A stretch of DNA of 64,000 nt from an uncultured delta proteobacterium (GTDB lineage Bacteria; Myxococcota; Myxococcia; Myxococcales; Myxococcaceae). The notes below the pieces were generated by a model, which had not been told where the DNA came from, ran no database searches, and was given only the letters and a program-made list of their open reading frames with translations. The position numbers and the translations under genes were made by a program. Positions 33,387 through 64,000 of the stretch are shown piece after piece (the first letter of the stretch is position 1; each line of letters begins with the position of its first letter). Location: assembly GCA_963771175.1 (NCBI GenBank), contig CAVYSY010000011.1, positions 128,001-192,000 of the forward strand, written 5' to 3'.

Positions 33387-33764
33387 TTGAGCGCCAACAT
33401 CCTCCTCGTGGATGACAGCCCGACCGTACGCAACATCCTCAAGATCTATCTCATGAACCTGAAGATGGGGTTCGTCGAGGCAGAGGATGCGACTCGGGCG
33501 TTGCAGCTCCTCCGGCTGGTGCCGGTGAAGCTGGTCATCGCGGATATCAACATGCCGGGTATGGACGGCATTACCTTCGTGAAGCAGGTGCGCCAGAGTC
33601 CTCTGTCGCACGTGCGAGACGTTCCAGTCATCCTGCTCACGGGCGAGCGGGGCGGCGACCTGCGGCAGCGGGGCGTCGAGGCCGGAGCCAACGCCTTCAT
33701 CAACAAGCCGGTTTCCCATCACGACCTGACGGAAACCGTGCGCAAGTTCCTGGCCCAGAACTGA
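33387..33764 (+). CDS. CheY-like response regulator, first gene of the Che cluster
   Basis: ILLVDDS, IADINMPGMDG, LLTG, FINKPV; TTG start inferred. Confidence 0.88.
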   Translation: MSANILLVDDSPTVRNILKIYLMNLKMGFVEAEDATRALQLLRLVPVKLVIADINMPGMDGITFVKQVRQSPLSHVRDVPVILLTGERGGDLRQRGVEAGANAFINKPVSHHDLTETVRKFLAQN

Positions 33765-33774
33765 GAGCCGAGCC

Positions 33775-34641
33775 GTGAGCCTCCCGTCCCTGCTCCTCGT
33801 CGATGACAGTGATGCCATCCTGGCGCTCGAGCGCGCCATCCTCTCTGGTCATTACGCGCTGAACACCGCGAGTAATGGCAAGGAGGCGCTCGAGAAGGTC
33901 AGCCGCGTCCAGCCCGCCGCCATCCTGTTGGATCTCTCCATGCCGGAGATGGATGGAGATGAGGTGCTCAAGCGGCTGAAGGCGGACCCCGCCACGGTCC
34001 ACATCCCGGTCATCATCATCTCCTCGGAGGCGGCGCGGGCGGAGGCGTGCCTGTCGCTGGGCGCGGAGCTCTTCCTGGCCAAGCCCTTCCGCGCCGACGA
34101 GCTGCTGACGGCGGTGGAGAACGCGCTGGAGAACGCAAGGCGCCGGGCCCGGGTGGGCTCCATGGCCCTGCTGCGGCTCACGGTGGGGGGCCTGGAGTTC
34201 TCCATCCCCCTGGAGGCGGTGCGCCAGGTCATCCTCCAACCCGCCACGCGCCCGCTGCCGCTGGGGCCGGCGTACATGTCCGAGTTCTTCGAGCTGCGCG
34301 GCCAGCCCGTGTGCGTGCTGGACCTGGCGCGCCGGCTGGACGTGGAGCACCGCGAGGTCGTCGAGGAGCGCAAGCTGGTCATCCTGGAGATCGACGAAGT
34401 GCTGCTGGCGCTGAGCGTGGATGCGGTGCAGGACCCGGAGGAGTACCAGGCCTCGGACATCGAGCGGCGCGAGCGCGTCGGAGGCTCCGGACACGGGGTG
34501 TTGCGTGACACGCTGCTGGGCATGCTCCGGGCCGGAGAGCGTTCGGTGCCCATCTTCGATCCGAGGGCCTTCGCCACGCAGGAACTGCTGCGCGAGGCGA
34601 TCGAGGCGCTCCGGCCGGCGGGGGTGGAGCGCAGCGCATGA
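33775..34641 (+). CDS. Receiver-CheW fusion protein
   Basis: N-terminal REC (LLVDDS, LLDLSMPEMDG, AKPF) plus CheW domain (FSIPLEAVRQV, ELRGQPVCVLDL). Confidence 0.88.
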   Translation: MSLPSLLLVDDSDAILALERAILSGHYALNTASNGKEALEKVSRVQPAAILLDLSMPEMDGDEVLKRLKADPATVHIPVIIISSEAARAEACLSLGAELFLAKPFRADELLTAVENALENARRRARVGSMALLRLTVGGLEFSIPLEAVRQVILQPATRPLPLGPAYMSEFFELRGQPVCVLDLARRLDVEHREVVEERKLVILEIDEVLLALSVDAVQDPEEYQASDIERRERVGGSGHGVLRDTLLGMLRAGERSVPIFDPRAFATQELLREAIEALRPAGVERSA

Positions 34642-35849
34642 GTACGGGGGTGGAGCCGCAGCAGCTGCTCGCGCGGGCGCGCGAGGTCGTCTCGTCGTGC
34701 ACGGGTTTCCGCGACACGGCCATCTCGCCCACGGCGGTGGATCGCGTGATGCGCGCGGAGCTGGCGCGTGGACGTTCCGTCGCGGAGCTGATGGCGGAGC
34801 TGCAGCGGCCCGGCGCGCCGCTGGCGCGGGCGCTGCTGGATGCCGTGCTGGTGGGCGAGACGTACTTCTTCCGCCACCCGGAGCAGTTCCGCTTCCTCGC
34901 CGCCGAGGCGGCGCCCGCGGCGTTGCGCCGGGGCAACTTCGTGCTGCGCGGCTGGAGCGCGGGCTGCGCCTCCGGTGAGGAGGCCTACTCCATCGCCGCG
35001 TGCCTGCTGGGCATGGCGCCTTCGGGCGTGCGCGTGGAGGTGATCGGCACCGACCTGCACGAGGGGCGCCTGGAGTACGCGCGCCGGGGAACCTACGGGA
35101 ACTGGTCCCGCCGCGAGGCCGGGCCGCTCCTCTATCCCGTCTACCACGACATCGGCGAGGGACGGGTGAGCGTGCTGGAGCCCGTGCGCGCCGTTACCCG
35201 CTTCGCCCAGGGCAACCTGCTGGAGCCCTTGGCGGAGAGCTTCGGCCGCTTCGACGTCATCTTCTGCCGCAACGTGCTGACGTACTTCTCGCCGGAGGCG
35301 GTGCGCACGGCGCTGGGGCACCTGGCGAACGCGCTCGTTCCGGGCGGCTTCCTGCTGCTGGGCACGGTGGAGGTGGACCATCCGCCCGCGGGGCTGGTGC
35401 GCGTGGGGCCTCCGGAGCTGCAGGCCTTCCGTCGGCCGCTGCCGCAGGAGCTGGCGCCTCCGCCCCGTCCCGCCCCTCGCGAGCCCGAGCCGGTCCGTGT
35501 GGCCATGCGCGTGCCGCCGCCCGCGCCCACCCCGCCGCCCGCTCCCTCTCCCGTGCGCCTGCACCTCGAGGCGCTCCAGAGCATCGAGAGCGGTGACGAG
35601 GCCGGCGCCGCCTCCACCCTGGAGACGCTGCTGGAGCAGTTCCGCGACTACATCCCCGGCATGCTGGAGCTGGCCCTGCTGCGCGAGCGCGCGGGGGCTC
35701 GCGAGGCTGCCTTCGCCCTCATGCACACCGTGCGCGACATCGCCTCCCGGCTTCCGCCGGATCTGACCATCGAGGGGCCAGAGCCGTTGCCTGCCCGATT
35801 CTACCGGGCGTCCGCTGACGCCTTCCTCACGCTGGGAGCCATCGAATGA
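34638..35849 (+). CDS. cheR: Chemotaxis methyltransferase with C-terminal TPR-like extension
   Basis: VGETYFFRHPEQF, WSAGCASGEEAYS, FDVIFCRNVLTYF. Confidence 0.92.
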   Translation: MSTGVEPQQLLARAREVVSSCTGFRDTAISPTAVDRVMRAELARGRSVAELMAELQRPGAPLARALLDAVLVGETYFFRHPEQFRFLAAEAAPAALRRGNFVLRGWSAGCASGEEAYSIAACLLGMAPSGVRVEVIGTDLHEGRLEYARRGTYGNWSRREAGPLLYPVYHDIGEGRVSVLEPVRAVTRFAQGNLLEPLAESFGRFDVIFCRNVLTYFSPEAVRTALGHLANALVPGGFLLLGTVEVDHPPAGLVRVGPPELQAFRRPLPQELAPPPRPAPREPEPVRVAMRVPPPAPTPPPAPSPVRLHLEALQSIESGDEAGAASTLETLLEQFRDYIPGMLELALLRERAGAREAAFALMHTVRDIASRLPPDLTIEGPEPLPARFYRASADAFLTLGAIE

Positions 35850-36391
35850 ATTCCAACCCACGCGGCCCCGAGGAGATTCAGGATCCCGAGGTCCGTACCC
35901 TCCTCGACGAGCGTGCGACGCGCCTGCGGGGACGCGCCGAGGGGACGGTCGACGAGTCCGTCATCATGGTGGCCGAGTTCCCCCTGGGTGAGGAGCGGTA
36001 CGCGCTGCCGCTGGATTCACTGCGCTCGGCGCTGCCGCTGCGCCTGGTGACGCCGGTGCCCCTGTCCCAGCCGCACGTCATCGGTGTGCTGCGCTACCAG
36101 GGCTCCGTGCTCTCCGCGCTCAGTCTCGCGGCGCTGCTCGGTGGCCACGGCTGGCGGCAGGATCCCGCCGTGCTGCTCGTGGTGGAGCGCGGTGACGGGG
36201 AGCTGTGCGCCCTGGACTGCGAGGCCATTCCGCGCCCGCTCAGCCTGCCCGCCGCGGCGGTGGAGGCCGCGCGCACCCACTCCGAGGGGCCGGTGATCGA
36301 GGTCCCCCTGAGCAACAACCGTCAGATCATCCACCTCATTGACCTGCCGCGCCTCTTCGCGCGCGGCGCCGGGGCGCGCAATGCCGGTTGA
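35846..36391 (+). CDS. cheW: CheW adaptor
   Basis: LGEERYALPL, TPVPLSQPHVIGVLRYQG. Confidence 0.85.
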   Translation: MNSNPRGPEEIQDPEVRTLLDERATRLRGRAEGTVDESVIMVAEFPLGEERYALPLDSLRSALPLRLVTPVPLSQPHVIGVLRYQGSVLSALSLAALLGGHGWRQDPAVLLVVERGDGELCALDCEAIPRPLSLPAAAVEAARTHSEGPVIEVPLSNNRQIIHLIDLPRLFARGAGARNAG

Positions 36392-38543
36392 CCCCATGCT
36401 GCAGAGCCTCGTCGCCGGTTTCTCGGGCGAGGCGCAGGAAGTCTGTCAGAAGGTCACCCTGGACCTGCTCGAGCTGGAGCGGGAGGGGATCGATAACGAA
36501 GCGTTGGCGAAGGTGTACACCCGCCTCGCGCGCCACCTGCACACCCTCAAGGGCAGTGCGGCCAGCCTCGGGTTGCAGGACCTGAGCTCCATCGCCCACA
36601 AGCTGGAAGATGCCCTCGCGCCGCTGCGCAAGGACATCACGCCCATGCCGCGGTCCATGGTGGACATGCTGCTGCACGGGTTGGACCTGTTCCTGCTGCG
36701 TGCCCAGGCGCACGCCGAGGGGCGAGGGGAGTCGCTGCCGGATCCGACGGCCGCCCTGGCCCAGCTCGTGGCGGAAGCGCCGGCCCCGGAGGAGGCCGCT
36801 GGCGCTGATCACTCCGCCGAGGCCGCTGCGGCCCACGCGCCCGCGAAGGCCGCGCCCGCCGCCGCTCCGTCGCAGTCCGCGGTGTCCCTGGCGGACGACT
36901 CCGACGTGGACGCGGGCTGGCGCGTGGCCGCGCACCAGGTGACGGCGCTCATGCGCGAGGTGGAGCGCATGCGCGAGTTCCGCATGCGCCTGGAGGACCG
37001 GCTCCGCGACCTCGCCAAGGCCGTGGAGCTGCTGTCGGCCCGCGAGCTGCTGGCTCCTACGGCCCGGGCCCGCGCGGTCCTGGCGTCCGTGAACGCCGGC
37101 GTGCGCTCGGACGGTCATGAGGCCTCGGACATCGTGGACAGCCTCGAGGAGGGCCTCAAGTCCATCACCACGCGCCCGGTGCGCACCATCCTCGAGCCGC
37201 TGCAGCGCATGGTGCGCGACCTGTCGCGCCAGCTCGGCAAGCAGGCCCGGCTCTCCGTGGTGGGCGCCGAGGTGTCGCTGGACCGCCGCCTGTTGGAGAA
37301 GCTCAAGGGCGCCATGGTGCACCTGCTGCGCAACGCGGCGGACCACGGGATTGAAATGCCCGACGAGCGCGAGCGCGCCGGCAAGCACCACGAGGGGGCC
37401 CTCACCCTGCGCGTGGAGCAGCAGGGCAACATCCTCATGATGGAGCTGAGCGACGACGGGCGCGGCATCGACGTGGCGCAGGTGCGCGCGTCGGCCGAGC
37501 GCAAGGGGCTCATCACCGTCGACGAGGGCGCGCGGATGCACGAGGCGCAGCTGCGCGACCTCATCTTCCGCCCCGGCTTCAGCACCCGCACGGACGTCAC
37601 CGACACCTCGGGCCGCGGCGTGGGCCTGGACGCGGTGCGCTCCTCGGTGGAGTCCATGCAGGGCCGCATCGAGGTGGTGAGCACCAAGGGGTCGGGCACC
37701 CGCTTCATGATGACGATCCCCATGGAGCTCGGCAGCTCGCCGGTGCTCACGGTGCGCGCCATCGACACGGCGGTGGGCCTGCCCATGCTGGCGGTGGAGT
37801 CCACCCAGCTGGCCTCCAAGGACAACCTGCGCATCGGCCGCGCGAAGACGCAGCTCGACTACAACGGCCAGCTCGTGCCGGTGGTGGACCTGGGGGCCCG
37901 CCTGGGCCTGCGCGCCTCGGCGCCTCCCTCCGAGGGCCAGCCGCTCATCATCGTCCAGAGCGGTGGCAGGCGCATGGCGCTCGCGGTGGACGCGGTGGTG
38001 GGTGACCGCGACCTCGTCATCCGTCCGCTGCCCGCCGAGGTGCGGGACGTGCCCGCCTATCAGGGCGCGGCCATCCTCAGCCGCGGCGAGCTGCTGCTCA
38101 TCCTGCGCCCCGGCTGGGTGGTGACCGAGGCCACTCCGGCCGCCGTCGCCATGCCTCAGAGCCGCAGGGCCCTGGTGGTGGACGACTCGCTCACTGCCCG
38201 CGCGCTGCACCGCGCCATGCTGGAGGCCGGTGGCTTCACCGTGCACCTGGCCGCCAGCGGCGCCCGCGCCCTGGAGCGGTTGCGGACGGAGACCTACGAC
38301 GTGATCATCTGCGACCTGGAGATGGAGGAGATGAACGGAACCGAGCTCATCGCGAAGCTGCGCACGCAGCCGGATACGAGCAACGTCCCGGTCATCCTCG
38401 TCTCCGCCAACGACAGTGCGGGTGCGCGTGCTCGGGGTCTGTCCGCGGGCGCGGACGGCTACCTCAGCAAGCGTGAGTGCGCCGCCGGCCGTCTGCTCAC
38501 CGAGGTGCTCGACGTGATGAGCCGGAGGGGGGCACGGGCATGA
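36381..38543 (+). CDS. cheA: Hybrid CheA histidine kinase (HPt-HATPase-CheW-REC)
   Basis: HLHTLKGSA, HLLRNAADHGIE, DDGRGID, GFST..SGRGVGLD, C-terminal receiver domain. Confidence 0.95.
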   Translation: MPVDPMLQSLVAGFSGEAQEVCQKVTLDLLELEREGIDNEALAKVYTRLARHLHTLKGSAASLGLQDLSSIAHKLEDALAPLRKDITPMPRSMVDMLLHGLDLFLLRAQAHAEGRGESLPDPTAALAQLVAEAPAPEEAAGADHSAEAAAAHAPAKAAPAAAPSQSAVSLADDSDVDAGWRVAAHQVTALMREVERMREFRMRLEDRLRDLAKAVELLSARELLAPTARARAVLASVNAGVRSDGHEASDIVDSLEEGLKSITTRPVRTILEPLQRMVRDLSRQLGKQARLSVVGAEVSLDRRLLEKLKGAMVHLLRNAADHGIEMPDERERAGKHHEGALTLRVEQQGNILMMELSDDGRGIDVAQVRASAERKGLITVDEGARMHEAQLRDLIFRPGFSTRTDVTDTSGRGVGLDAVRSSVESMQGRIEVVSTKGSGTRFMMTIPMELGSSPVLTVRAIDTAVGLPMLAVESTQLASKDNLRIGRAKTQLDYNGQLVPVVDLGARLGLRASAPPSEGQPLIIVQSGGRRMALAVDAVVGDRDLVIRPLPAEVRDVPAYQGAAILSRGELLLILRPGWVVTEATPAAVAMPQSRRALVVDDSLTARALHRAMLEAGGFTVHLAASGARALERLRTETYDVIICDLEMEEMNGTELIAKLRTQPDTSNVPVILVSANDSAGARARGLSAGADGYLSKRECAAGRLLTEVLDVMSRRGARA

Positions 38544-39610
38544 GCAGCGAGAAGGCTCCCATCCGCGTGCTGGTGGTGGACGACTCGCCCACCATGGCGG
38601 ACGCCGTCAGCGCGCTGCTGACGGACGATCCGCGCATCGAGGTGGTGGGGCGAGCCAATACCGGCAGTCGGGCGGTGACGCTGGCGCGCCTGCTGCGCCC
38701 GGACGTCATCACCATGGACCTGCTGATGCCGGACCTGGACGGCCCGGCGGCCATCGCGGCCATCATGGCGGAGGCGCCCGCGCGCATCCTCGTGGTGAGC
38801 GCCGTGGCGGATCAGCGCAATCTGGAGGTCTGCTTCCAAGCGATGAGCGCGGGAGCGCTGGAGCTCATCGGCAAGCCCACCGTCTCCAGTGGCGAGGAGC
38901 TGCGCCGCTGGGGCCGGCAGCTCGCCGAGTCGGTGTGCCTGATGGCGGAGGTGCCGGTCATCTCCCGCCGGCTGCGCATCGCCACGCCGCCGCCGCCCGC
39001 CACCGGGGCCCGGGTCGACATCTTCGGCCTGGCGGCCTCCACCGGTGGCCCGCCCGCGCTGTCCGAGGTGCTCTCGCGCCTGCCAGGGGACCTGCCCGTT
39101 CCCATCGTCATCGCGCAGCACATCACCGAGGGCTTCACCCCGGGTATGGTGCGCTGGCTGTCTCAGGTGACGCCCCTGAAGGTGGCCATCGCCCGCGAGG
39201 GCGAGCGGCTGGAGCCGGGCCGGGTGTACTTCCCGCTGGACGGGCATGACATGACGGTGGAGGGCAACGGGGTGGTGCGGCTGACGCGCACGCGCGGGGG
39301 GCCGTGTCCCTCGGGGGACCTGTTGCTGACCTCGCTGGGACGCACCTACGGCAGCCGCGCCGGGGGCGGCGTGCTCACCGGCATGGGCGAGGACGGGGCG
39401 CGCGGCCTGCTGGACATCAAGAAGGCCGGCGGCGTCACCTTCGCCCAGGACGAGGCCACCTCCGTCGTCTTCGGCATGCCCCGAGTGGCCATCGAGCTGA
39501 AGGCTTCCGACCGGGGAGTGCCCCTGTCCGCCATTCCCGACATCATTCGCGTGAGCTGCCGCCGCGGCCCCACGCCCAACCGCCCTGCCGGTTCGGAGGG
39601 CATCGCTTGA
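38540..39610 (+). CDS. cheB: Chemotaxis methylesterase with receiver domain
   Basis: REC domain; ASTGGP, AQHI, LTGMGEDGARGL, QDEATSVVFGMP. Confidence 0.95.
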   Translation: MSSEKAPIRVLVVDDSPTMADAVSALLTDDPRIEVVGRANTGSRAVTLARLLRPDVITMDLLMPDLDGPAAIAAIMAEAPARILVVSAVADQRNLEVCFQAMSAGALELIGKPTVSSGEELRRWGRQLAESVCLMAEVPVISRRLRIATPPPPATGARVDIFGLAASTGGPPALSEVLSRLPGDLPVPIVIAQHITEGFTPGMVRWLSQVTPLKVAIAREGERLEPGRVYFPLDGHDMTVEGNGVVRLTRTRGGPCPSGDLLLTSLGRTYGSRAGGGVLTGMGEDGARGLLDIKKAGGVTFAQDEATSVVFGMPRVAIELKASDRGVPLSAIPDIIRVSCRRGPTPNRPAGSEGIA

Positions 39611-39669
39611 ACCATTTTCCGTGCAAGGCCGCTGGCGCTGGCCTCGACACTTCCCGCTGAGGAGCTTCC

Positions 39670-41265
39670 GTGAGCCCCAACGCCAATTCGAATCAGTCCT
39701 TGGGTATTGGCCCCAAGTTCATCCTCGTCATGGCGGTCGTCAGTGTCGCCATCGCGCTCCTGCTCAGCGCGGTCGCCGCTCAGCGACTGGAAAGCAACCT
39801 GCTCGAGAGCACCGTGAGCGAGGGCAAGTCGCTTGCCCTCGGCTTCTCGGCGGCCGCCGAGCGGGTCTCCTCCGACGGTGCCACCTCGCTCCAGCCCCTG
39901 CTGGAGCAGTTCCGCGACGCCGAGGGCGTGCGCTACCTCTACGTGGTGGACGGTGCCAACAACGTGCTCGCCCACACCTTCTCGGGCGAGTTCCCCAAGG
40001 CGCTGCTCGAGGCCAACACCGTGAAGCCCGGTGATCTCACCAGCGGCCAGCAGGTGAAGGTCCGCGAGTCGGTGGAGGTGACGGTCGACGGCAAGCGGGT
40101 GAGCGCCGTGGACGTGGCCGCGCCCCTGTCCGGCGGTCTGCGCGGTGTGCTGCACGTGGGCCTCAAGGCCGAGCGCATCAGTGGCCAGGTGGGCCGACTG
40201 TGGCTCACCATGATGCTGCTGGGCCTGCTCATCGTTTCGGCCGGGATCGCCGCAGTGTCCTTCCTCAGTCGCTCCATCGTGAGGCCGCTGCGCGAGCTGA
40301 CGGACGCGGCCGCCCACATCGTCGAGTCCGGCGACCTCACCCGCCCCATCCAGGTGCAGGGTGGTTCCGAGGTGGGCCAGCTCGCCCACTTCTTCGCGCA
40401 GATGGTGGAGCGGCAGCGCACGGTGGTTCAGAACCTCCAGCAGGCCGCCGAGGCCCTCAACGCCTCCACCGAGCAGCTCAACAGCTCCGCCGCCGATCAG
40501 TCGCAGACCGTCTCCCGCCAGGCCTCCGCGCTCCAGGAGACGCAGGTGACGGCGCAGGAGATCCGCCAGACGAGCCTCCTGGCCGCCCAGAAGGCCGACT
40601 CGGTGCTCTCCGTGGCCGAGCACGCCGAGGAGCTGGGCCGCGCCGGCGAGGCCGCCCTGGAGCAGACGCTCACCGGCCTCAACGACATCCGCACCCAGGT
40701 GCAGGAGATCGCCCAGAAGATTCTGGAGCTGGGCGAGCGCACGGTGCAGATCGGCAGCATCACCCAGACGGTGAAGGACCTGGCCGACCAGTCCAACATG
40801 CTGGCGCTCAACGCCGCCATCGAGGCGGTGCGCTCGGGCGAGCACGGCAAGGGCTTCGGCGTGGTGGCCCGTGAAATCCGCGCCCTGGCCGACCAGTCCA
40901 TCGAGTCCACGGACCGCGTGCGCGAGCTGCTGGACGATATCGGCAACTCGGTGGGCATGGCCGTGCGCATCACCGAGCGCGGCTCGCAGCGCATGGAGGC
41001 GGGCCTGGAGCAGGTGCGCACCTACGGCAAGAACCTGCGCGAGCTGTCCGGCATCATCCAGGACAACGCCTCCGCCGTGCGGCAGATCGCCGCCGCCGTG
41101 GGCCAGCAGAACGTGGGCATCAACCAGATCACCACCGCCGTGAGCGACCTGTCCAAGATGATGGACGAGACCGTCTCCCGCATCGGTGCCACGGGTGAGG
41201 CCGCTACCACGCTGCAGATCATCGCCGACCAGCTCAGCAGCGCGGTGAAGAGCTACCGCGTCTAG
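39670..41265 (+). CDS. Methyl-accepting chemotaxis protein (2 TM, periplasmic domain, HAMP)
   Basis: Two TM helices, SEVGQLA HAMP, LADQSNMLALNAAIEAVRSGEHGKGFGVVAREIRALA. Confidence 0.95.
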   Translation: MSPNANSNQSLGIGPKFILVMAVVSVAIALLLSAVAAQRLESNLLESTVSEGKSLALGFSAAAERVSSDGATSLQPLLEQFRDAEGVRYLYVVDGANNVLAHTFSGEFPKALLEANTVKPGDLTSGQQVKVRESVEVTVDGKRVSAVDVAAPLSGGLRGVLHVGLKAERISGQVGRLWLTMMLLGLLIVSAGIAAVSFLSRSIVRPLRELTDAAAHIVESGDLTRPIQVQGGSEVGQLAHFFAQMVERQRTVVQNLQQAAEALNASTEQLNSSAADQSQTVSRQASALQETQVTAQEIRQTSLLAAQKADSVLSVAEHAEELGRAGEAALEQTLTGLNDIRTQVQEIAQKILELGERTVQIGSITQTVKDLADQSNMLALNAAIEAVRSGEHGKGFGVVAREIRALADQSIESTDRVRELLDDIGNSVGMAVRITERGSQRMEAGLEQVRTYGKNLRELSGIIQDNASAVRQIAAAVGQQNVGINQITTAVSDLSKMMDETVSRIGATGEAATTLQIIADQLSSAVKSYRV

Positions 41266-53950: not shown

Positions 53951-54021
53951 GGCGTCCTTCGTACCAGCCCGGTGGACGTTCTTTCGAGGAAAGCGTTGCG
54001 GCCGGGCGTCGGGCGCGGACA

Positions 54022-55186
54022 ATGCCGTTTCAGGTGACGACCGTCCAACAGAGGGATCAGGTGTTCGTCTCGGCGCTGCCGGGACTGGAGCCGGCCGTGG
54101 AGGCCGAGGCCGAGGCGTTGGGCTTCTCGCCCCGGAGGGTGGAGGGCGGGGTGGAGCTCACCGGCGAGCCGGGGCTGCACCAGGAGGCCAACCTGCGCCT
54201 GCGCACGGCGAGCCGGGTGCTGCTGCGGCTGGGGCGCTTCGCCGCGCCGGACGCCGGGGCCCTGGCGAAGGGCCTGGCCGGGCTTCCCCTGGGCAAGGTG
54301 TGGGACGGGAAGTCGGCGCCGAGGCTCTCGGTGGCCCTGCACGGCGCGCGTATCAAGGGGCAGGACGCGGTGCTGTCCGCCGCCGCGCGAGCCTGGGGAC
54401 TGCCCTCGGTGGAGCGCGCGGGGCCGCTGGACGAGGAGTCCTCCGAGGGCCTCACCCTGCTGGTGCGCCTGGAGGGCGACACGTGCACGGTGAGCGCGGA
54501 CACCAGTGGTGAGCCGCTGCACCGGCGCGGGTATCGGCAGGAGGTGAGCCGGGCGCCGCTGCGCGAGACGCTCGCCGCGGGCATCCTGGTGCTGGCCGGG
54601 TATGACGGGGTGGAGCCGCTGGTGGACCCGATGTGTGGCTCGGGCACCTTCCTCATCGAGGGCGCGTGGATGTCCCAGCGGCGGCGCGCCGGGCCTGGCG
54701 CGCTCGTTCGCCTTCGAGCGCTTTCCCGGCTTCGACGCGGCGGGCTGGGCGGCGCGGAAGGCAAGGGCGGAGGCGGAGTCCCTGCCGGCCCCGCGCGCGG
54801 TGTTGAGGGGCCACGACATCAACGCGGGCTCGCTGGGCACGGCGAGGCGCAACGCGCGGCGGGCGGGGGTGTCGCTCACGCTGGAGCGCCAGGACGTGCG
54901 CACGCTGGCGCTCCCGGCGGGACTCGGGCCTGGGCTGGTGGTGGTGAACCCGCCCTACGGCAAGCGGGTGGGGGAGGCGGAGGACCTGCCGGGGCTGTAC
55001 CGGGCGATGGGGGCCACGTTCCGGCGAGCCTTCGCCGGCTGGCGCGCGGCACTGCTCGTCCCGGAGGACACGGGGTTGATTCGCGCGCTGGGACTGCCCG
55101 AGGGGAGGAGTCTGCCGGTGCGCAACGGCGGCCTGCGCTGCCGCCTGCTGTTGTGCTCGCTGCCCTCGTCCCAGTCCCGCGTGTGA
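54022..55186 (+). CDS. THUMP-domain RNA methyltransferase (RlmL-like); frameshift near 54685
   Basis: NLRLRTASRVL, DTSGEPLHRRGYR, APLRETLAA, DPMCGSGT, VNPPYGKR. Confidence 0.88.
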
Positions 55187-55231: not shown

Positions 55232-56794
55232 CTACCGACCCACGGCGAGCCGCGAGGGCTTCGCCGAGGTGCCGTCCATGGCGAGCGCCCGCGCGACCAT
55301 GACCTGGGCGGCGAGCACGGTGGAGCGCACCACATGGAGGGGCCGGTAGAGGCCCTTGGCGATCCACAGCTTGGGGTGGATGTCGGAGGGCTCGCTCCCG
55401 TCGTAGGGCGCGAGGTAGGCGGTGCCCTTGGCGAGGATGCCGGCGTCGACGCTCAGGCCGGCGAGCCGCGCGGCGGCCAGGGCATGGAGGGCATAGGCGG
55501 TCTCCTCGGGCGAGCTGCGGCCGAACCAGCCCCAACCGCCGTCGGTGCGCTGGTTGGCCTGGAGCCACTGCACGGAGGGCACCACGCAGGAGGCATCCCA
55601 GCGCAGCAGCGCCCGCGTCGCGCGGCTGGTGACGTAGTACACCGAGGCGTGCCACTTGTCCGTCCAGAAGCCATCCTGGCGGCGCTGGCTCAGCAGGAAG
55701 CGGGCGGACTTGTCCACCGAGTCCTGGCCGCCGGGGTACGGCCGGCCTTGGATGGCGTCCAGCACGTGGGCGTTCGCACTCACCGAGGCGCCGCGCTCCA
55801 CGAGGAAGCCGACGAAGCCGTCTGGCCGCTCATACTGCGCCAGCAGCTTCCAGTTCACCTCGTAGCCGTGGTCGTGCAGCAACCCGGAGGACACGGAGGT
55901 GTCATCCGAATCGCCGTAGGCGACCTCCGAGGACCACGCCAGCCCGAAGGCCTGGGTGTGCGAGCGGATGGCCTCCAGGTGTGGCTTCAGCTCCGGCTGG
56001 AGCTCGGGGCTCATCCCCGCCATGTGCAGGTGGTAGGCGATCCACAGCCGCTGCCACAGCTCGGTTCCCGTTCCGAAGGGGATGCTGCGGGGCCCGCGGC
56101 GGTCCACCAGTTCCCGCAGGCCGCGGAGCGCGCGCTCATCGCCGCTCTTCTGCACGAAGTGGGCGGTGGTCGCCACGCTCGCGCCCACGAGCCCGTTGGC
56201 CGTCTGCAGCTTGCGAGCCTGCTCCACGTCCAGCTTGTCGCGCAGGAACTCGAGCGAGAAGCCCAGGCTGAGATGGGGCGCGTACAGCATCTGGGGCGGC
56301 ACCCGCGACATCTTCTCCTTGTGCAGGGCCTCGGCCGCGGCGCTCAATGCGTGGAGGTTGCTGAAGCCCCGCTCGCATACCTCCGCGAGCAGCGGGGCGG
56401 CCACCAGCTCGAAGCCGATGGTGAGATCCGGCTCATCCTTGAGCCGCGGCCAGCTCTTGAGGACGAAGGCCGCGGCGCGATCCGCCCGCGCGCGCGCTTC
56501 CGGCCCGTTGTCGAACTCGATCACCGCCAGCATGGAGGAGAGCGTGGCCAGCAGCCGCGCGGAGACGTAGTCCACCTCCGGCGCCCAGCCACCATCCTCG
56601 GCCTGGGTGGTGCGCACCACCTCCAGCACCTCGGGGAAGGCCGGCTCTCGGGTGCCCGGCTTCGCCACGCGAGCCAGGAAGCCCGCGTCGTACTCCGAGT
56701 GCCCCACGTCGGCCATGTCGGGCTGGTCGAGCAGGGCGCGGGCGCGCTCCAGGAGCTGAGCCTTCGAAGGCAGGTGCGGGTCGATATCGGGCAT
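55232..56794 (-). CDS. Class II (protonation-initiated) diterpene cyclase, beta-gamma fold
   Basis: SEYDAGFLA (YDTAW-like), QAEDGGW, IGFEL, DSDDTS (DxDD), SVSANAHVL, WTDKWHASVYY.T, QRTDGGWG, EETAYAL, LWIAKGLYRP. Confidence 0.9.
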   Translation of the reverse strand: MPDIDPHLPSKAQLLERARALLDQPDMADVGHSEYDAGFLARVAKPGTREPAFPEVLEVVRTTQAEDGGWAPEVDYVSARLLATLSSMLAVIEFDNGPEARARADRAAAFVLKSWPRLKDEPDLTIGFELVAAPLLAEVCERGFSNLHALSAAAEALHKEKMSRVPPQMLYAPHLSLGFSLEFLRDKLDVEQARKLQTANGLVGASVATTAHFVQKSGDERALRGLRELVDRRGPRSIPFGTGTELWQRLWIAYHLHMAGMSPELQPELKPHLEAIRSHTQAFGLAWSSEVAYGDSDDTSVSSGLLHDHGYEVNWKLLAQYERPDGFVGFLVERGASVSANAHVLDAIQGRPYPGGQDSVDKSARFLLSQRRQDGFWTDKWHASVYYVTSRATRALLRWDASCVVPSVQWLQANQRTDGGWGWFGRSSPEETAYALHALAAARLAGLSVDAGILAKGTAYLAPYDGSEPSDIHPKLWIAKGLYRPLHVVRSTVLAAQVMVARALAMDGTSAKPSRLAVGR

Positions 56795-56970: not shown

Positions 56971-58392
56971 TCAAGCGCTCTTGGCGGTGGCGTGGGGCGT
57001 GCGCCTGCGCACCCGGAGCCACACGCCGTTGCGAGGCCGGGTCGCCCCGGCGACGGTCGCCTCCATGGGGCGGCCGGGCACGGGCTCGAGCTCGAAGCGC
57101 GACAGCAGCCGCGTCAGGACGAGCTGCCCCTCCATGAGCGCGAAGTCCCTGCCGATGCACAGCCGCTGGCCATTTCCGAAGGGAATCCAGGCCAGCGGGT
57201 GCCTCCCGGCCGAGCGCTCCGGAGTGAACCGCCACGGATCGAACTGGTCGGGCTGCTCCCAGAATTCGGGGTGCCGATGGATGACGTAGGTCATGACGCC
57301 GATCATCGAGCCAGCGGGGATGCGGTAACCGTCGATGACGTCATCCTCGACCGCCGTGCGCGGCACCCAGTAGGTGGGCGGGTACATGCGCAGGCCCTCC
57401 TGCAGCACCATGAGCACCTTCTGCAAGCGGGGCAGGTGCATGAGGGTGGGAGTGCTCTGTCCGAGCACCTGGTCGCATTCGTCCCGCACCATCTGGGCGA
57501 GGTCCTGCCGCTCGGCCAGGCTGCCGCAGGTGAAGGCCAGGGCGGTGGACGTGGTCTCGTAACCCGCCAGCAGCAGCGAGATGGCCTCGTCGCGGAGTTG
57601 GTGGTCCGTCATGCGGCCGCCCTCGTCATCCACCGCGTCGATCAACATCCCCAGCAGATCGCCTTCGGAGTTGGAGCCCTTCTCCCGGCGCCGGGCGATC
57701 AGCTCGAAGATGATCTGGTCGATGTTGCGCATGGCCTGCTCGAAGCGGCTGCGCCCCGGGGCGGGCATCCACTGGGGCAGCTTGCTGGTGAAGAGGCTGG
57801 AGAGCACATGCTGGACGACGTAGTCGAACTCCCGGCTCACCTGGGTGGCGGCTTCGGGCGAGATGTCGGCGCCGAACAGCGTCTTGACCACCACGTTCAT
57901 GGTGAGGCGGGCGAACTCGTGGAAGCTGTCGAACGGCTCACCCGATTCCGCGGCCCGGTCCCAGCTCTCCAGGCTCTCGTCGATGGCCTTGAGCATGACG
58001 TCGAACAGGGTGGTGATGCGCTCCCGGTGGAAGTGCGGTTGGATCATGCGCCGTTGCCGCAGCCAGAAGTCGCCCTCGCTGGTGGGCAGCCCGTTGCCGA
58101 CGATGCTTCGGATGGCGCCCCAGATGGGGCCACCCTTGATGTAGCGGCGGGGATGGTCACGCAGCACGTGCTGGGCATGGCGCGGGTGGTTGAGCGCGAT
58201 GCAGCGGGTGATGCCCAGGTCGAGCGTGTAGATGTCCCCGTGTCGGGCTCTGGCGGAGAGGACATAGCCCAGGGCATCCCGCGCGAGGCCCGGCAGTGCT
58301 CCCACCAGGGGGAGTCCCGCACGGGGCGGCAGGGGCAGCGTCGAGTCGCTGGAGGAAGGCGCGGGGGGAGCGGGGGGATCGCGATCTGGCAT
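56971..58392 (-). CDS. Cytochrome P450
   Basis: LAGYETT I-helix, EGLR (ExxR), FDPWRF, PFGNGQRLCIG heme motif. Confidence 0.96.
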   Translation of the reverse strand: MPDRDPPAPPAPSSSDSTLPLPPRAGLPLVGALPGLARDALGYVLSARARHGDIYTLDLGITRCIALNHPRHAQHVLRDHPRRYIKGGPIWGAIRSIVGNGLPTSEGDFWLRQRRMIQPHFHRERITTLFDVMLKAIDESLESWDRAAESGEPFDSFHEFARLTMNVVVKTLFGADISPEAATQVSREFDYVVQHVLSSLFTSKLPQWMPAPGRSRFEQAMRNIDQIIFELIARRREKGSNSEGDLLGMLIDAVDDEGGRMTDHQLRDEAISLLLAGYETTSTALAFTCGSLAERQDLAQMVRDECDQVLGQSTPTLMHLPRLQKVLMVLQEGLRMYPPTYWVPRTAVEDDVIDGYRIPAGSMIGVMTYVIHRHPEFWEQPDQFDPWRFTPERSAGRHPLAWIPFGNGQRLCIGRDFALMEGQLVLTRLLSRFELEPVPGRPMEATVAGATRPRNGVWLRVRRRTPHATAKSA

Positions 58393-58507: not shown

Positions 58508-59455
58508 ATGTCCAATCCCTCAGTGCCCTCGGAGCCCTCCGACCCCACGGAGGCGGTAGTCCACTTCATCGAGACGAACGCCGTCACGTTCGAGCGAGGT
58601 GAGCCGCGGAAGTACTTCGCCAGGTTCACCAAGATGAATGGGGGGCTCACTCTGCCCATCGTGGACCCGGAGCACCTGACCAAGGTCATCCGGCTCAAGA
58701 ATTTCTACGCCCTCTGGAATTTCCTGGTGGACGATGAGATGGACCGGGATGGGCGCTCCACCGGACTCGACGACAGCATGATGATGCTGATGCATTACTC
58801 GCGGGGGGCACCTCTTTCGTCCCAGGTCTCCGTCGCTGCGCGGCTGCTCGAGAAGATCCTGCGGGAGGTGAAGGCGCTCTCCACCGCGAATGACCCGACC
58901 AAGGCCCGCCTGCGCGAGATGTTCTACTTCGACCTGTGGGCGCTGATGACCGGGTTCAAGCACGAGGCCTGTATCAACGACATGAAGGAGGCGGCCAACC
59001 CGATGGAGTACATCAAGTACACCACCCTGGTCGGCTCCATCGAGCACCTGCTCGACCTGGACTGCCTCTTCGCCACCAGCACGCTGCCGCCCCCCGTCTA
59101 CAACCGCCTGCGGGTGGCCTACGATCATCTCGGACGGGCGCTCAAGTTCTCCTCGGACGTCGGGTCGCTGAAGCGGGAACTGATGGAGGAGGACAACCTC
59201 AACCTCATCCGGATCCTGGCCGGCGGCGAGAACATCACCGGCCTCGAGAAGAAGCTGTCGGAGGCGGAGTTCGAGGCCCTTCGCTCCGACCTCGAGCCCA
59301 TCGTGAAGAAGGTGCGCGACATGGCCCGGGAGCACCTGGAGAAGGCGAGCAGTCTGCTGTCCGGCCTCTCGGGGGTGGATACCGGGCGGCTGCTGGGGAC
59401 GGTCTCCTCCATCGTCCAGGAGTACTTCAAGGGCGACGTGTTCTTCCAGAAGTAA
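58508..59455 (+). CDS. Divergent class I terpene synthase-like protein
   Basis: All-helical 315 aa; LVDDEMD (DDxxD) and SDVGSLKRE..E..NL (NSE/DTE-like) at typical spacing; context of class II cyclase and P450s. Confidence 0.72.
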   Translation: MSNPSVPSEPSDPTEAVVHFIETNAVTFERGEPRKYFARFTKMNGGLTLPIVDPEHLTKVIRLKNFYALWNFLVDDEMDRDGRSTGLDDSMMMLMHYSRGAPLSSQVSVAARLLEKILREVKALSTANDPTKARLREMFYFDLWALMTGFKHEACINDMKEAANPMEYIKYTTLVGSIEHLLDLDCLFATSTLPPPVYNRLRVAYDHLGRALKFSSDVGSLKRELMEEDNLNLIRILAGGENITGLEKKLSEAEFEALRSDLEPIVKKVRDMAREHLEKASSLLSGLSGVDTGRLLGTVSSIVQEYFKGDVFFQK

Positions 59456-59466
59456 GCGGTGCTCGC

Positions 59467-59493
59467 GGGAAGGCGGGGGGAGCCCGCCTTCCC
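59467..59493. terminator. Perfect 11-bp stem-loop between convergent terpene synthase and mcp
   Basis: GGGAAGGCGGG-gggag-CCCGCCTTCCC. Confidence 0.6.
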
Positions 59494-59506
59494 ACAGCCG
59501 CGGTGA

Positions 59507-61352
59507 CTACTCCGGCCTGTTGTTGGCCGGTGTGCCGGGCTGCTCGGCCGGCGCGGAGCCGTCCTGCATCCAGCCGTACTGGCCGACGAAGCCAGTCACC
59601 TGCTGGGCCACGTTGCGGACCACGGAGATGGCCTCCTCCGAGGCACGCAGCTGGGTCATCGTCTGATCCATGATGCGCGTCATGTCGGTGACGGCCTGGG
59701 TGATCTGCACGATGCCCGCGTCCTGCTGGGTCACCGCGGCGGCGATCTGCCGCACCGAGTTGGCGTTGTCGCGCACGATGGCCGAGAGCTGCTGCACCTG
59801 TTGGCTGAAGCTCTGGATCTGCACCAGGCTGCTCTCGACGCGCTTGGTGCCCTTCTCCGTGAGCGTGGCCGCGCTGGCGATGGCGGTGCCGATGCCCTGG
59901 AGGATGGAGCGGATGTTGTGAGTGGCGCGGATGGACTGATCCGCCAGTGAGCGGATCTCCTTGGCCACCACGCCGAAACCCTTGCCGCTCTCGCCGGAGC
60001 GCACCGCCTCGATGGCGGCGTTGAGCGCGAGCATGTTCGACTGGTCGGCCAGGTCCTTCACGATGGCCGTGATGCGGGCGACCTGCCGGGCCTGCTCATC
60101 CAGGGACTTGATGCTGGTGGCGATCTCACGCACCTGCGCGCCGATATCCGACAGGCCCGCCATGCCCTCCTGGATGGCCGCCTCGCCGGAATGGCTGATG
60201 TCCTGGGCCTTCTCGGCCTGCTTGAGGATGTTGTTGGCCGTCTTCGCGGCGAGCTGCGAGGTCTGGGTGATCTCCTCGGTGGTGACCTGGGTCTCCTGCA
60301 GCGCGGTGGCCTGGACCGACAGCACCTCCGTCTGCTTCGTCGTCGACAGCCCGAGCTGCTGGGCCGAGTCCTGCAGCGAGAGGGCGGAAGCGCGCAGCGA
60401 CATGGAGAAGGAGCGCAGCTGCTCGAAGACGCGGGCGGTGGCGGCCGACAGGTCGCCGATCTCATCGGTGGAGATCCAGTTGGGCAGCCGGGGCTGACCG
60501 CTGGCCAGGCCCACCAGGGCGTCCTGGATGCTCATCGCGCCCTCCTGCTGCCGACGGGCGAGCACCCACGCCGTCGTGCCGGCGATGGCCAGGAGGTAGC
60601 CACCCAGGATGACGAGGGGGATCATCGAGTCCCGGGCCAGCTTGGTGAGCATCTGCTGGATGAGCGCCTGCACCTCGGCGGTGCTGACGGCGGCGCTCTT
60701 GGCCAGCAGCTCATGGTAGGTGTCGTAGCCCTGCCGGCCGATGATGGTGAGCGTCATCGCCAGGGTGCAGGCCACGAAGAGCGCGAGCGTGTAGGGCAGG
60801 AACCACGACTGGCGGGGCCACAGGAAACCCCTGCCCTTGGGCGTCAAGGTCCCCGCGAGGATGGAACTGCTTGACCGCGTAGGGGCTGAGGATCCGCTCC
60901 ATCTGGTACTGCTCCACCACCATCAGCAGCGCCAGGTGCAGTCCCGTGGCGACCAGCGCCCATAGGATGAGCAGCGGATCCCGGCCGAACAGCACGACCG
61001 AGCCACCGACGAGGAAGCTCACGCCCGGCACGAACGTGGCGAAGATGGCGATCACGATGGTGCCGGGAACCTTGAGGATGCTCTCGAGCTGGACATCAGG
61101 TGGCGTGCTCGCCGGCACATCGAAGGCGCGCTGCACGGCCCGGCGCGTGACCAGGTAGGGGATGAGGATCGTCAGCACCGTGCTGGAGATGGGCGCCAGG
61201 TAGCCGAAGATGGTGATGGCCTCCTTGCGGTTGAGGCCCATGATGACCGCCAGCAGGTACAGCATGGCTGGGGAGCCGATGACATTAGAGACCTGCCGGG
61301 CATTCCACAGCTTCTTGAAGACCTTGGTGGCTTCTGGCGAGAGAGAACTCAT
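59507..61352 (-). CDS. Methyl-accepting chemotaxis protein with about 6 TM helices; one frameshift near 60850
   Basis: ORF 60711..61376 (4 TM) joins ORF 59507..60847 (WPRQSWFLPY, DEIGDL, LADQSNMLALNAAIEAVRSGESGKGFGVVAKEIRSLA). Confidence 0.9.
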
Positions 61353-61771
61353 GTGTATTCGCTGGGGTACTCCCAAAGAGGCTTGACGGCCAGCTTACAC
61401 GCCATGGGCGCGATCTCCAAGGTTCGGAGTCAAGCGGATTTCCCGGGACTCATGCACCTCAGGAGCGCAGGCAGGCTGGCTGGCGCGGGACCTGACGGGC
61501 GGCTCGAACCGCGCCAGGTGCACTCCCAGTCCGTGCTGCCCCCTACCTCCGAGGGGGGTGCCCTCCGTTGTGCTCCCTACCCGCGGCACGAGCTGACGCC
61601 ATTTTAAAAATCTTCAATAGGGATGTGCGGGGAAGTGTCTTGTACTGAACGGATACGCGATTTTCGAAGGGAGAAGTGCTCGACACCTCACGATGATGGC
61701 TAGGCTCTCGCCCCCACCCGCATCCATCTCAATGACAGTCACATTCTGTCGCATCCACCGAAGGGGGAACC

Positions 61772-63007
61772 GTGGGGAGCGCAGCCCGGCAGCTCGTCAT
61801 CAATCCAGTCAGTCCCGAGAACCTTCTCGATCCAGTCCCGCTCTACGAGGAGATGCGCAAGAACGCCCCGGTCTTCTGGTCTGACCTGGTGCAGGCCTGG
61901 TTCATCACGCGTAACGAGGACGTGATGAACTGCTTCCGCGACAGCCGGCTGAGCGCCAACCGGACGAGGTTCTACGAGGCGCAGCTCCGAGGCATGGACG
62001 TGGAGGTCATCCGGGAGCTGATGCAGAGCCTCAGCCACCAGGTGGGCATGAAGGACGGCGCGGAGCACCAGCGCCTGCGCCGGCAGGTCAACCCGGGCTT
62101 CACACCACAGATGCTCGACTCCTGGCGGCCCGCCATCCGCCGCATCATGGAGATGTTGGTGGACCGGGTCGAGCCCATGGGCCGCATGGACCTGTTCCTG
62201 GATATCGCGCACCAGTTGCCTGTGCTCGTCATCGCGGAGATCCTGGGCATCCCCGCAGAGGATCGCGAGCGCTTCCAGGCGTGGGTGCAGCCGATCGCCG
62301 AATTCACGAGCCCCTCCCTGGGGGTGGACGTGGCGGCGCTGGCCCGCCGGGCCACCGCGTCCATGAAGGAGTTCAATGCCTACCTGCTCGGGGTCATCCA
62401 GGAGCGCCGCCGCACCCCCGGTGACGACGTGCTCAGCCGGATGATCCACAATCAGGAGGGGGGTGGGATGTCCGAGGATGAGCTGGTGGCCAACGTCAAC
62501 CTCATCCTCTCGGCCGGGCATGTCACGACCACCGACCTGCTCAGCAACACCGTCCATGATCTGCTGGCGCACCCCGACCAGTACCAGAAGCTCCGGGAGG
62601 ACCGCGGTCTGCTGGCCTCGGCGGTGGAAGAGGCCATCCGCTTCACCCCATCGATGCCTTTCATCCACCGGATCGCCGTGGAGGACGTCCAGCTCCATGG
62701 CAAGACCATCCGCAAGGGCGACGTCGTCTTCCTCGGCCTGTCGTCCGCCAATCGCGATCCGGAGGCTTTCCCGGACCCGGATACCTTCGATATCACCCGC
62801 AGTCCATCCCCGCAGAAGAACATGGCCTTCGCCTTCGGGCCGCACTACTGCCTGGGCTCGGGGCTGGCCCGCCGCGAAGTGGAGATAGCCCTCGACGTGC
62901 TCCTCGAGCGTCTGCCCGGCCTGCGCCTGGACGAGCGGATCCCGCCGCGCGTCAAGTGCCACACCTTGCTCTTCCGGGGCTTTGATTCGCTGCCCGTGCG
63001 TTGGTAG
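61772..63007 (+). CDS. Cytochrome P450
   Basis: HQRLRR, SAGHVTT I-helix, EEAIR, ANRDP, AFAFGPHYCLG heme motif. Confidence 0.96.
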   Translation: MGSAARQLVINPVSPENLLDPVPLYEEMRKNAPVFWSDLVQAWFITRNEDVMNCFRDSRLSANRTRFYEAQLRGMDVEVIRELMQSLSHQVGMKDGAEHQRLRRQVNPGFTPQMLDSWRPAIRRIMEMLVDRVEPMGRMDLFLDIAHQLPVLVIAEILGIPAEDRERFQAWVQPIAEFTSPSLGVDVAALARRATASMKEFNAYLLGVIQERRRTPGDDVLSRMIHNQEGGGMSEDELVANVNLILSAGHVTTTDLLSNTVHDLLAHPDQYQKLREDRGLLASAVEEAIRFTPSMPFIHRIAVEDVQLHGKTIRKGDVVFLGLSSANRDPEAFPDPDTFDITRSPSPQKNMAFAFGPHYCLGSGLARREVEIALDVLLERLPGLRLDERIPPRVKCHTLLFRGFDSLPVRW

Positions 63008-63138: not shown

Positions 63139-64000
63139 GTGACGGGCTCCACCCAGAGCCAGCGCTTCAACTTGGTCTCCCCTGAGAACCTGCTCAATCC
63201 CATTCCCGTCTACAAGCATCTGCGGGAGAACGACCCGGTTCATTGGTCCGACGTACTGCAAAGCTGGTTCATCACCCGTCACGACGACGTGGTGAACGGC
63301 TTTCGTGACCCGCGCCTGAGCGCCGACCGCAGCCAGTTCCTGGAGCATCAGGTGCGGCTGCTGGGACTGACCCCTGAGATCATCGGGAACATCATCGAGA
63401 GCCTCCGCCGACAGATGGTGAACGCGGATGGTGCGGCACACCTGCGCCTGCGCCGACTGGCCAGCCCGGGCTTCACTCCCCAGCTGCTCGACACCTGGCG
63501 CCCGGCCATCCGCACCACCATGAACATGCTGATGGAGCGGGTGCAGGGGCGGGAGCGCATGGACCTGGTGAAGGAGCTGTCCTACCAGCTGCCACCGCTC
63601 ATCATCTGCGAGCTGCTCGGCGTGCCCGCCGAGGATCGCGAGCGCTTCCAGGAGTGGGGGCGAACCATCGTCCAGTTCAACAGCCCCACGGTGGGCGTGG
63701 ACCTGGTGGATCTGGCCCACCGGGCCAACGAGGCCATGGGGGAACTCACCCGATATCTGACGACGGTCATCGAGAAGCGCCGCCACTCCCCGGGCCAGGA
63801 TGCACTCAGCTTGATGATCCAATCCCAGGCGGAGGGGGGGTTGTCCGAGGAGGAGGTGCTGGCCAACGCGGTGCTCCTGCTGTCGGCTGGGCACCTCACC
63901 ACCACCGATCTGCTCAGCAATGGCGTGCACGATCTGCTGTCGAACCCTGAGCAGTTCCAGAAGCTGCGCGAGGATCCCGCCCTGATCAAGTCGGCCGTGG
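63139..64000 (+). CDS. Cytochrome P450, tandem paralog of 61772..63007, truncated by window edge
   Basis: Absent from ORF track because no stop in window. From GTG 63139: VSPENLLNPIPVYKHLRENDPVHWSDVLQSWFITRHDDV..HLRLRR..SAGHLTTTDLL. Confidence 0.92.
   Translation, partial: MTGSTQSQRFNLVSPENLLNPIPVYKHLRENDPVHWSDVLQSWFITRHDDVVNGFRDPRLSADRSQFLEHQVRLLGLTPEIIGNIIESLRRQMVNADGAAHLRLRRLASPGFTPQLLDTWRPAIRTTMNMLMERVQGRERMDLVKELSYQLPPLIICELLGVPAEDRERFQEWGRTIVQFNSPTVGVDLVDLAHRANEAMGELTRYLTTVIEKRRHSPGQDALSLMIQSQAEGGLSEEEVLANAVLLLSAGHLTTTDLLSNGVHDLLSNPEQFQKLREDPALIKSAV

Follow-up and report, generated by a model that had tools for sequence, protein, structure and literature searches.

What is a chemoreceptor gene doing among genes for terpenoid biosynthesis? 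This question is raised by a 64,000-nucleotide stretch of contig CAVYSY010000011.1 (the window) from an uncultured member of the Myxococcaceae, whose 9.8-Mb assembly (genome G000) is 81.7% complete and whose closest relatives are named Archangium. In the window, a gene for a methyl-accepting chemotaxis protein (MCP) with six transmembrane segments (TM1 to TM6) lies between a class I terpene synthase gene and tandem cytochrome P450 genes, in a six-gene cassette that is flanked by an rlmL-like gene and a histidine kinase gene and that extends beyond positions 58508-63007. The original prediction held that this receptor may sense the terpenoid made by its neighbours, and kept chance adjacency as a real alternative. 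We conclude that the association of receptor and enzymes is real, family-wide and not due to chance. Moreover, because of the genes, their motifs, their joint presence and absence, and their relocation, we think it somewhat probable that the 9-kb insert is a make-and-sense cassette, in which an oxidised diterpenoid would bind the membrane domain of the receptor and signal via a Che5-type pathway.

Association of the receptor family with biosynthetic enzymes

The window MCP belongs to the McpD/McpL sensor family, whose members share an N-terminal membrane domain of ~285 amino acids (aa; full-length matches to profile A5). The Myxococcus xanthus orphan chemoreceptors McpD (MXAN_1248, ABF89240) and McpL (MXAN_6938, ABF90672), whose accessions were confirmed in clusters of McpD- and McpL-type proteins, score 315 and 216 bits against this profile and share 36% and 33% identity with the window's receptor, respectively. 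The profile matches 100 of the 172 genomes of the bacterial family. A genome has at least 4-9 matches in Archangium, the genus of the window, at least 5-8 in the sister genus g45 and at least 1-3 elsewhere; these counts are lower bounds because 12 candidates were scored per genome. In a sample of the phylum, 117 of 401 genomes gave a match, nearly all of them in two families. Genome G196 has two full-length A5 matches only, of the McpD and McpL types; Mcp3A and Mcp3B of Che3, which share the layout with six TM segments (PMC3945109 Table 1, as far as this source was available to us), were not compared directly.

In five complete genomes, 10 of the 28 MCPs of the family are encoded at most 5 kb from a class I or class II cyclase match, as opposed to none of the 122 other MCPs, with 0.15 expected from gene density. 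This control used 150 of 156 PF00015 matches, and its Fisher p of 1e-8 is too optimistic, as these are related genomes and not independent ones. On this basis, chance adjacency was rejected.

The partners of the receptors were determined at 73 family loci picked by receptor score, comprising 68 fetched loci (a subset of the matches) and five of the six other family receptor loci of G000 itself, a sample that leans to the window's clade. Fifty receptors had terpenoid neighbours, i.e. a class I or class II cyclase (44), a UbiA-type prenyltransferase (5) or an Rv3378c-like transferase only (1), and 14 had polyketide neighbours, i.e. a PfaA-like polyketide synthase (PKS; 10) or an acyl carrier protein (ACP) with a type III PKS (4). 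Two more lay beside a P450 and a protein with a terpene-synthase-like fold lead, and two beside a flavin adenine dinucleotide (FAD) oxidoreductase only, one of these on a 3-kb contig. The sixth G000 paralogue lies 209 nt from a terpene synthase gene, and a separate contig scan with one narrow gene pattern gave eight loci. At 20 further loci, mostly in other genera, the receptor gene follows a heme-oxygenase-like diiron gene (13 loci, three of them Pfam-checked), follows a P450 gene with an ACP close by (2), precedes a type III PKS gene (1), lies by terpene genes (3) or has none of these partners (1).

Every well-supported clade of the sensor tree goes with a single cassette type, and the tree of the signalling domain agrees with the sensor tree; therefore, whole receptor genes move. 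One slot, between ribD and ribE, is occupied by four different receptor clades, each with an enzyme set of its own (L011; L069/L071/L073/L076; L072/L075/L077; L074/L078). Since linked genes move together and the two trees agree, the receptor could be a passenger of an ancestral mcp-P450-cyclase block that was duplicated and moved, and receptor and enzymes each do occur alone at some loci. This explanation is highly improbable: the partners have been swapped for unrelated folds (class I, class II, UbiA, cis-prenyltransferase-like, PKS, type III PKS and diiron oxidase) and have remained small-molecule enzymes, none of the 122 other MCPs is linked, and partners of the terpene type are found in several separate deep branches of a quick, weakly rooted tree (L102, L127, L058 and the main radiation). 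Terpene genes of both class I and class II directly precede MCP-cheR-cheW at L058:6923-13504; relatives of this operon in family f7 are without terpene genes.

At the cassette site itself, the gap between the ferredoxin reductase and kinase genes is ~1.2 kb and empty in 13 genomes of the genus, and ~10 kb with receptor and enzymes in G000 and G012. Thus, 13 of the 15 testable genomes have neither receptor nor diterpene genes and two have both; a receptor alone, i.e. at the site without the terpene genes, occurs in none of the 15, in line with the synteny originally proposed as a check. The count leaves out G005, G010 and G011, and the gap of 1.6 kb in G017 was measured to a partial match. Away from this site, the window's receptor clade and related enzymes are found together in G005 and G014 as well, which makes three sites in total. 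In G012, an unannotated 331-aa gene (c112, L044:7414-8406) takes the place of the class I synthase; its class I profile score is weak (E 0.002 among eight sequences), and its single-sequence model was too poor for use (predicted local distance difference test (pLDDT) 46).

A reverse search with the window's class II cyclase found 27 loci in 21 of the 172 genomes, which all belong to the two receptor-expanded genera. At 19 of the 25 loci that could be tested, a family receptor lies at most 5 kb away; the other two of the 27 are on short contigs. The concern that the cluster might usually occur without the MCP is partly justified for other cassettes than the window's.

Several observations weigh against the make-and-sense interpretation. 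On the side of the enzymes, six of the 25 testable cyclase loci are without a family receptor in the 18 kb fetched, the TPS1c-cyclase-P450 cassette carries a receptor in three of nine genomes, and among five orthologues of the class I synthase in the window, the one on G002:C161 shares its contig with no MCP gene. The reverse search therefore indicates that enzymes without receptor are commoner than terpene-clade receptors without enzymes. On the side of the receptors, five of the 73 are without an enzyme neighbour, two of them in G000 (upstream of the paralogue on G000:C58, no enzyme remnant was found), and enzymes are likewise absent beside McpL-type genes (3 of 3 loci) and from the sucAB-side receptor clade of the window's genus, which speaks against a universal rule. 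At all seven loci of family f7, some of them on short contigs, the receptor serves as the MCP of a separate che operon, and no terpene gene adjoins it. The match between clade and cassette is also expected from simple linkage, and in 40 hand-picked pairs the ratios of sensor to signalling divergence did not separate pairs with the same cassette from pairs with a changed one. Furthermore, the window MCP has no exact match to the methylation-site consensus, looser E/Q pairs being present, and in the parts of PMC3945109 available to us mcpL is listed both as a motility mutant and as a defect-free mutant and is called not expressed.

Several related loci hold observations of their own. A second family receptor in the window (21690-23504, minus strand), near sucAB, has no enzyme neighbour, and a related gene of G119 (L127) has a convergent terpene synthase. 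A diiron enzyme (PF14518; its cluster holds M. xanthus ABF87430) directly precedes McpD-type receptors in several genera, at L119:6018-6785, L120:6047-6787, L122:6245-6919 and L132:6022-6849. At L089:5870-6820, L081 and L082, an Rv3378c-like diterpenyl transferase gene lies directly upstream of the receptor and a class II cyclase; with a weak nucleoside deoxyribosyltransferase-like gene, these loci are possibly diterpene-nucleoside clusters. A 437-aa unannotated protein in the synthase position at L080:9127-10437 (also L079) has a terpene-synthase-like fold lead (TM-score 0.54); it and the 331-aa protein of L044 are candidate non-canonical terpene synthases. At L099:9677-15064 and G000:C31:11722-22072, a conserved PfaA-like PKS cluster with a phosphopantetheinyl transferase (PPTase) and an FAD oxidoreductase has its own receptor clade. 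In three of the seven f7 che-operon loci, a ketoacyl-synthase-III-like gene (by similarity only) lies four genes upstream of the receptor (L185:4421-5500, L186:1602-2630, L188:11333-12412). Finally, P0007, P0008, P0021, P0029 and L106:6869-10393 encode proteins of ~1130-1200 aa with at least two sensor-domain matches, i.e. tandem double receptors.

The cassette and its receptor gene

The cassette in the window has the following features:

55232..56794, minus strand: class II diterpene cyclase (beta-gamma type; PF13243/PF13249), DxDD in G-D-S-D-D-T
56971..58392, minus strand: cytochrome P450 (long type; PF00067, E 6e-84), upstream of the class II cyclase and in the same orientation
58508..59455, plus strand: class I terpene synthase (PF19086, E 2e-8, over the cut-off), convergent with the receptor
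59467..59493, no strand: 11-bp inverted repeat (perfect), located where the synthase and receptor genes converge
59507..61352, minus strand: MCP with six TM segments, McpD/McpL sensor family, ~614 aa if read through (PF00015, E 3e-32)
61392..61420, minus strand: promoter-like element TTGGAG-17 nt-TAAGCT, ~40 nt before the receptor start, from the upstream alignment
61772..63007, plus strand: cytochrome P450 (PF00067, E 4e-36), divergent from the receptor
63139..64000, plus strand: second tandem P450 (PF00067), whose open reading frame (ORF) ends 380 nt past the window edge (full ORF from the genome)

This layout is as originally described, with the class I synthase gene, the convergent MCP gene, a divergent gap (61353-61771) and the tandem P450 genes in that order. 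In the class II cyclase, the DxDD general-acid motif is present, and D295 and D297 are invariant in alignment A3. Its best solved relative is 6vpt ('Cyclase'; E 1.3e-48, full-length), followed by plant and bacterial copalyl-diphosphate synthases, and its 90% cluster holds a member automatically named halimadienyl-diphosphate synthase. The class II cyclases of G011 and G012 (L010:71-2191, L044:3536-5728) have a ~190-aa insertion near the C terminus, which is absent from the window's enzyme. The class I synthase has both metal motifs, DDEMD and SSDVGSLKRE (alignment A4), and orthologues with 43-49% identity in G002, G005, G011 and G014; a search of solved structures found no relative. No geranylgeranyl diphosphate (GGPP) synthase gene is present within the cassette, and polyprenyl synthase genes lie elsewhere in G000. 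The inverted repeat is a possible two-way terminator. Approximately 2.7 kb past the right edge of the window (G000:C11:194700-209031; L001, L002), the G+C content changes abruptly from ~0.70 to ~0.30 with genes of low-GC type, which is probably a chimeric contig join.

The promoter-like element is similar in five of six aligned upstream regions of clade members, suggesting that the receptor is expressed; a consensus promoter scan found nothing, and the element is under its threshold. Because the receptor and the P450 genes share a divergent gap, the receptor could alternatively be an input of the cluster: it would detect an outside cue (prey, a competitor or membrane stress), a Che pathway would switch on the terpenoid genes or the receptor would be co-regulated with them, and the product would be a weapon or a membrane additive. 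The frequent occurrence of the enzymes without receptor fits this explanation, as does the control of gene expression by M. xanthus Che3 (PMC3945109, in the parts available to us). However, it leaves unexplained why every chemistry is matched by a separate receptor clade whose membrane domain has diverged, no upstream motif common to 33 cassettes was found, and neither cheA nor a response regulator gene is present within the cassette. We therefore regard it as unlikely.

As assembled, the MCP gene is not the single intact gene that had been assumed. A +1 frameshift at 60859 separates the N-terminal part with TM1-TM4 (61352-60860) from the remainder, TM5 onward, in another frame (59507-60859). 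One read contig, from run X1, omits one base at 60859, at a depth of 4.2 and with 17 letters on the short side; this is under the 31-letter bar, so that the X1 contig is weak alone. X1 is possibly the source sample, and the base at 60859 is not seen in runs X2-X4. The rlmL-like gene (53941-55186) is likewise split; its extra bases, at 53968 and 54685, are missing in X1/X4 read contigs, and by a crude count 15 of 83 tested genes of the assembly are split over frames. Moreover, GC3 is ~0.9 on both sides of the frameshift, the orthologues are intact with lengths that agree at the join, and the intact relative P0097 is 88% identical and matches in length there. Because the orthologues and P0097 are intact, the nearby extra bases are absent from read contigs and many genes are split, the extra base is very probably an assembly error. 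That the receptor is a true pseudogene in this strain, which would make its compound and no longer sense it, is a poor prospect and concerns the strain, not the family. In its favour are the frameshift in the assembly, the thinness of the sole read contig without the base and the PKS-linked paralogue in G001, which is likewise split; against it are the other split genes and extra bases, the even GC3 and the intact relative.

Hydropathy gives six hydrophobic segments ahead of the HAMP-like and signalling parts, as originally described. The input region has almost no soluble part; the TM5-TM6 loop, described as short, comprises ~35 residues, and the model built for the intact orthologue from G011 (pLDDT 94; 77-row alignment) shows it as a helical hairpin extending TM5 and TM6. 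Between clades, identity is 20-27% in TM1-TM4, 15% in the periplasmic hairpin and 35-51% in TM5, TM6, the cytoplasmic loops and the HAMP segment, and positions 19, 26 and 144 (G011 numbering) hold clade-specific sensor residues; positions 133 and 197 also count as clade-specific. The window protein has no Pfam HAMP match and 10 of 77 members have a weak PF00672 match; the segment is conserved across clades.

Since the sensor is almost without a soluble binding domain and the partner enzymes identified all produce or alter hydrophobic compounds, sensing could also be indirect or self-protective, i.e. the lipid would alter the bilayer or be toxic, and the receptor would report this, allowing cells to retreat or adapt. 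For general monitoring of the bilayer, however, a genome would not require 4-9 paralogues that carry clade-specific TM residues, and this explanation has a slim chance of being correct.

Searches for relatives of the sensor gave little. Foldseek with the sensor model found no match at E<=1e-3, and a PDB sequence search with the sensor profile gave coiled-coil noise only. In the VIA fold search, the best Z was 7.7, and prenyltransferase/UbiA folds recurred at Z 6-7.6, which is within helical-bundle noise and was not used. Membership in MASE10 is not supported: PF20970 was not among the 25 families listed, of 47, for 77 members and had no match at the G000 family loci. Feature-level leads to MASE10 (0.84) and to an adenylate-cyclase anchor (0.88) were both < 0.9 and are leads only.

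Candidate output and a possible mechanism

One chemotaxis operon outside the cassette is a candidate for the output:

33387..41265, plus strand: complete Che5-like operon cheY, response regulator-cheW, cheR, cheW, cheA, cheB, mcp (Pfam), 14 kb away from the cassette

Its protein lengths (125/288/403/181/720/356/531) match those of M. xanthus che5 (PMC3945109 Tables 1-3, as far as available to us), and its MCP has the closest non-family signalling tip in the genome (53% identity), the next being partial or lower. This similarity of the tips is an indirect indication that the receptor may signal through Che5. In the same source, to the extent that it was available, McpD and McpL are grouped with Che4/5/6.

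We propose the following route, in which the enzymatic steps follow terpene and P450 chemistry. GGPP made elsewhere in the genome would be converted by the class II enzyme to a labdane-, halimane- or clerodane-type diphosphate, from which the class I enzyme would remove the diphosphate to give an olefin or alcohol, and the three P450s would oxidise this product to an amphiphilic diterpenoid. The diterpenoid would partition into membranes and bind the variable TM1-TM4 of the receptor; this site is suggested because the receptor has no soluble domain and TM1-TM4 vary while TM5, TM6 and HAMP are conserved. The periplasmic hairpin, with its low identity between clades, may be an alternative binding site. 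The conserved TM5-TM6 and the HAMP-like segment would relay the signal to the methyl-accepting domain, which would join a Che4/5/6 module, most likely through Che5, so that group motility or development is tuned to the local amount of the strain's own compound. This receptor family, which has repeatedly acquired different enzyme partners (cyclases of class I and class II, UbiA-type and Rv3378c-like transferases, PfaA-like PKS, type III PKS and, beside McpD, a diiron oxidase), would then provide lineage-specific signal channels.

These pairings suggest that each strain makes and senses private lipid signals. A broader and more tentative idea, which we consider rather less probable than its opposite, is that Archangium and its sister genus use a modular lipid-pheromone language, in which several interchangeable cassettes in each genome feed one Che4/5/6 module and serve kin recognition, territory and the timing of development. 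The compounds would range over diterpenoids, other terpenoids, terpene-nucleoside-like compounds and polyketide lipids. If so, many silent myxobacterial terpene clusters would be signal clusters with an attached receptor, and receptors without enzymes would be eavesdroppers.

To our knowledge, the ligands of most myxobacterial chemoreceptors are unknown, as are the ecological roles of many small myxobacterial gene clusters. For the alkylpyrones, the latter is stated in PMC12766979, in the parts available to us. In culturable strains, the pairing puts forward a possible ligand for every receptor and a possible role for every cluster; in M. xanthus, the genetic model, McpD and its diiron-enzyme neighbour form an enzyme-receptor pair that can be tested. 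The receptor is also a handle for genome mining as it marks terpene enzymes missed by Pfam (c86, c112 and the Rv3378c-like c40). If correct, make-and-sense cassettes would mean that terpenoids act as bacterial self-signals read by chemoreceptors, and that the membrane domain is a new membrane-embedded ligand-binding domain.

Comparison with known systems

A link between receptors and terpene cassettes was not described in the literature searched, of which few subscription papers were within reach, and the association is apparently unreported. The accessible parts of PMC12766979, PMC13445942 and PMC7321100 contain no chemotaxis or chemoreceptor terms, those of PMC12288465 describe no receptor-enzyme link, and those of PMC3945109 gave no ligand or biosynthetic link for McpD or McpL. 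These two M. xanthus receptors resemble the window receptor in sensor family and size but differ in their surroundings: McpD-type genes follow a heme-oxygenase-like diiron enzyme gene, McpL-type genes stand alone, and neither type lies beside a terpene cyclase.

With regard to the enzymes, the nearest known systems are labdane-related pathways of the Rv3377c/Rv3378c type. The closest solved relative of the window's cyclase, 6vpt, is an entry which we take to be M. tuberculosis Rv3377c, and a related cassette holds an Rv3378c-like gene (E 1.6e-12). The window differs in having a class I synthase without a solved relative and three P450s, and we know of no chemoreceptor in clusters of this type.

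In Vibrio CqsA/CqsS and Legionella LqsA/LqsS, the genes for a synthase and a receptor are linked, and the window cassette is alike, judging from its genes, in linking a receptor with six TM segments to genes for a lipophilic product. By contrast, CqsS is a histidine kinase and its signal an alpha-hydroxyketone, whereas here the output is PF00015 and the enzymes are those of terpene and polyketide synthesis; a sequence relation to the window receptor was not seen, and none was looked for. CqsS and LqsS have six TM segments, short loops and a lipophilic, self-made signal that possibly binds within the membrane (PMC4821796, as far as available to us). In their order of six TM segments followed by HAMP, MASE10 and actinobacterial adenylate-cyclase anchors (bioRxiv 10.1101/2021.11.05.467447, in the parts available to us) are also alike, but sequence membership of the window receptor is not supported.

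With regard to the exchange of whole cassettes, the ribD-ribE slot with its alternative receptor and enzyme sets resembles two further systems. In staphylococcal agr and Bacillus comQXP, one slot holds alternative, matched alleles for synthesis and receptor, with peptides as signals and kinases as receptors. The receptor family described here differs from both in the exchange of entire enzyme sets that are not homologous, and in having several cassettes side by side in the same genome.

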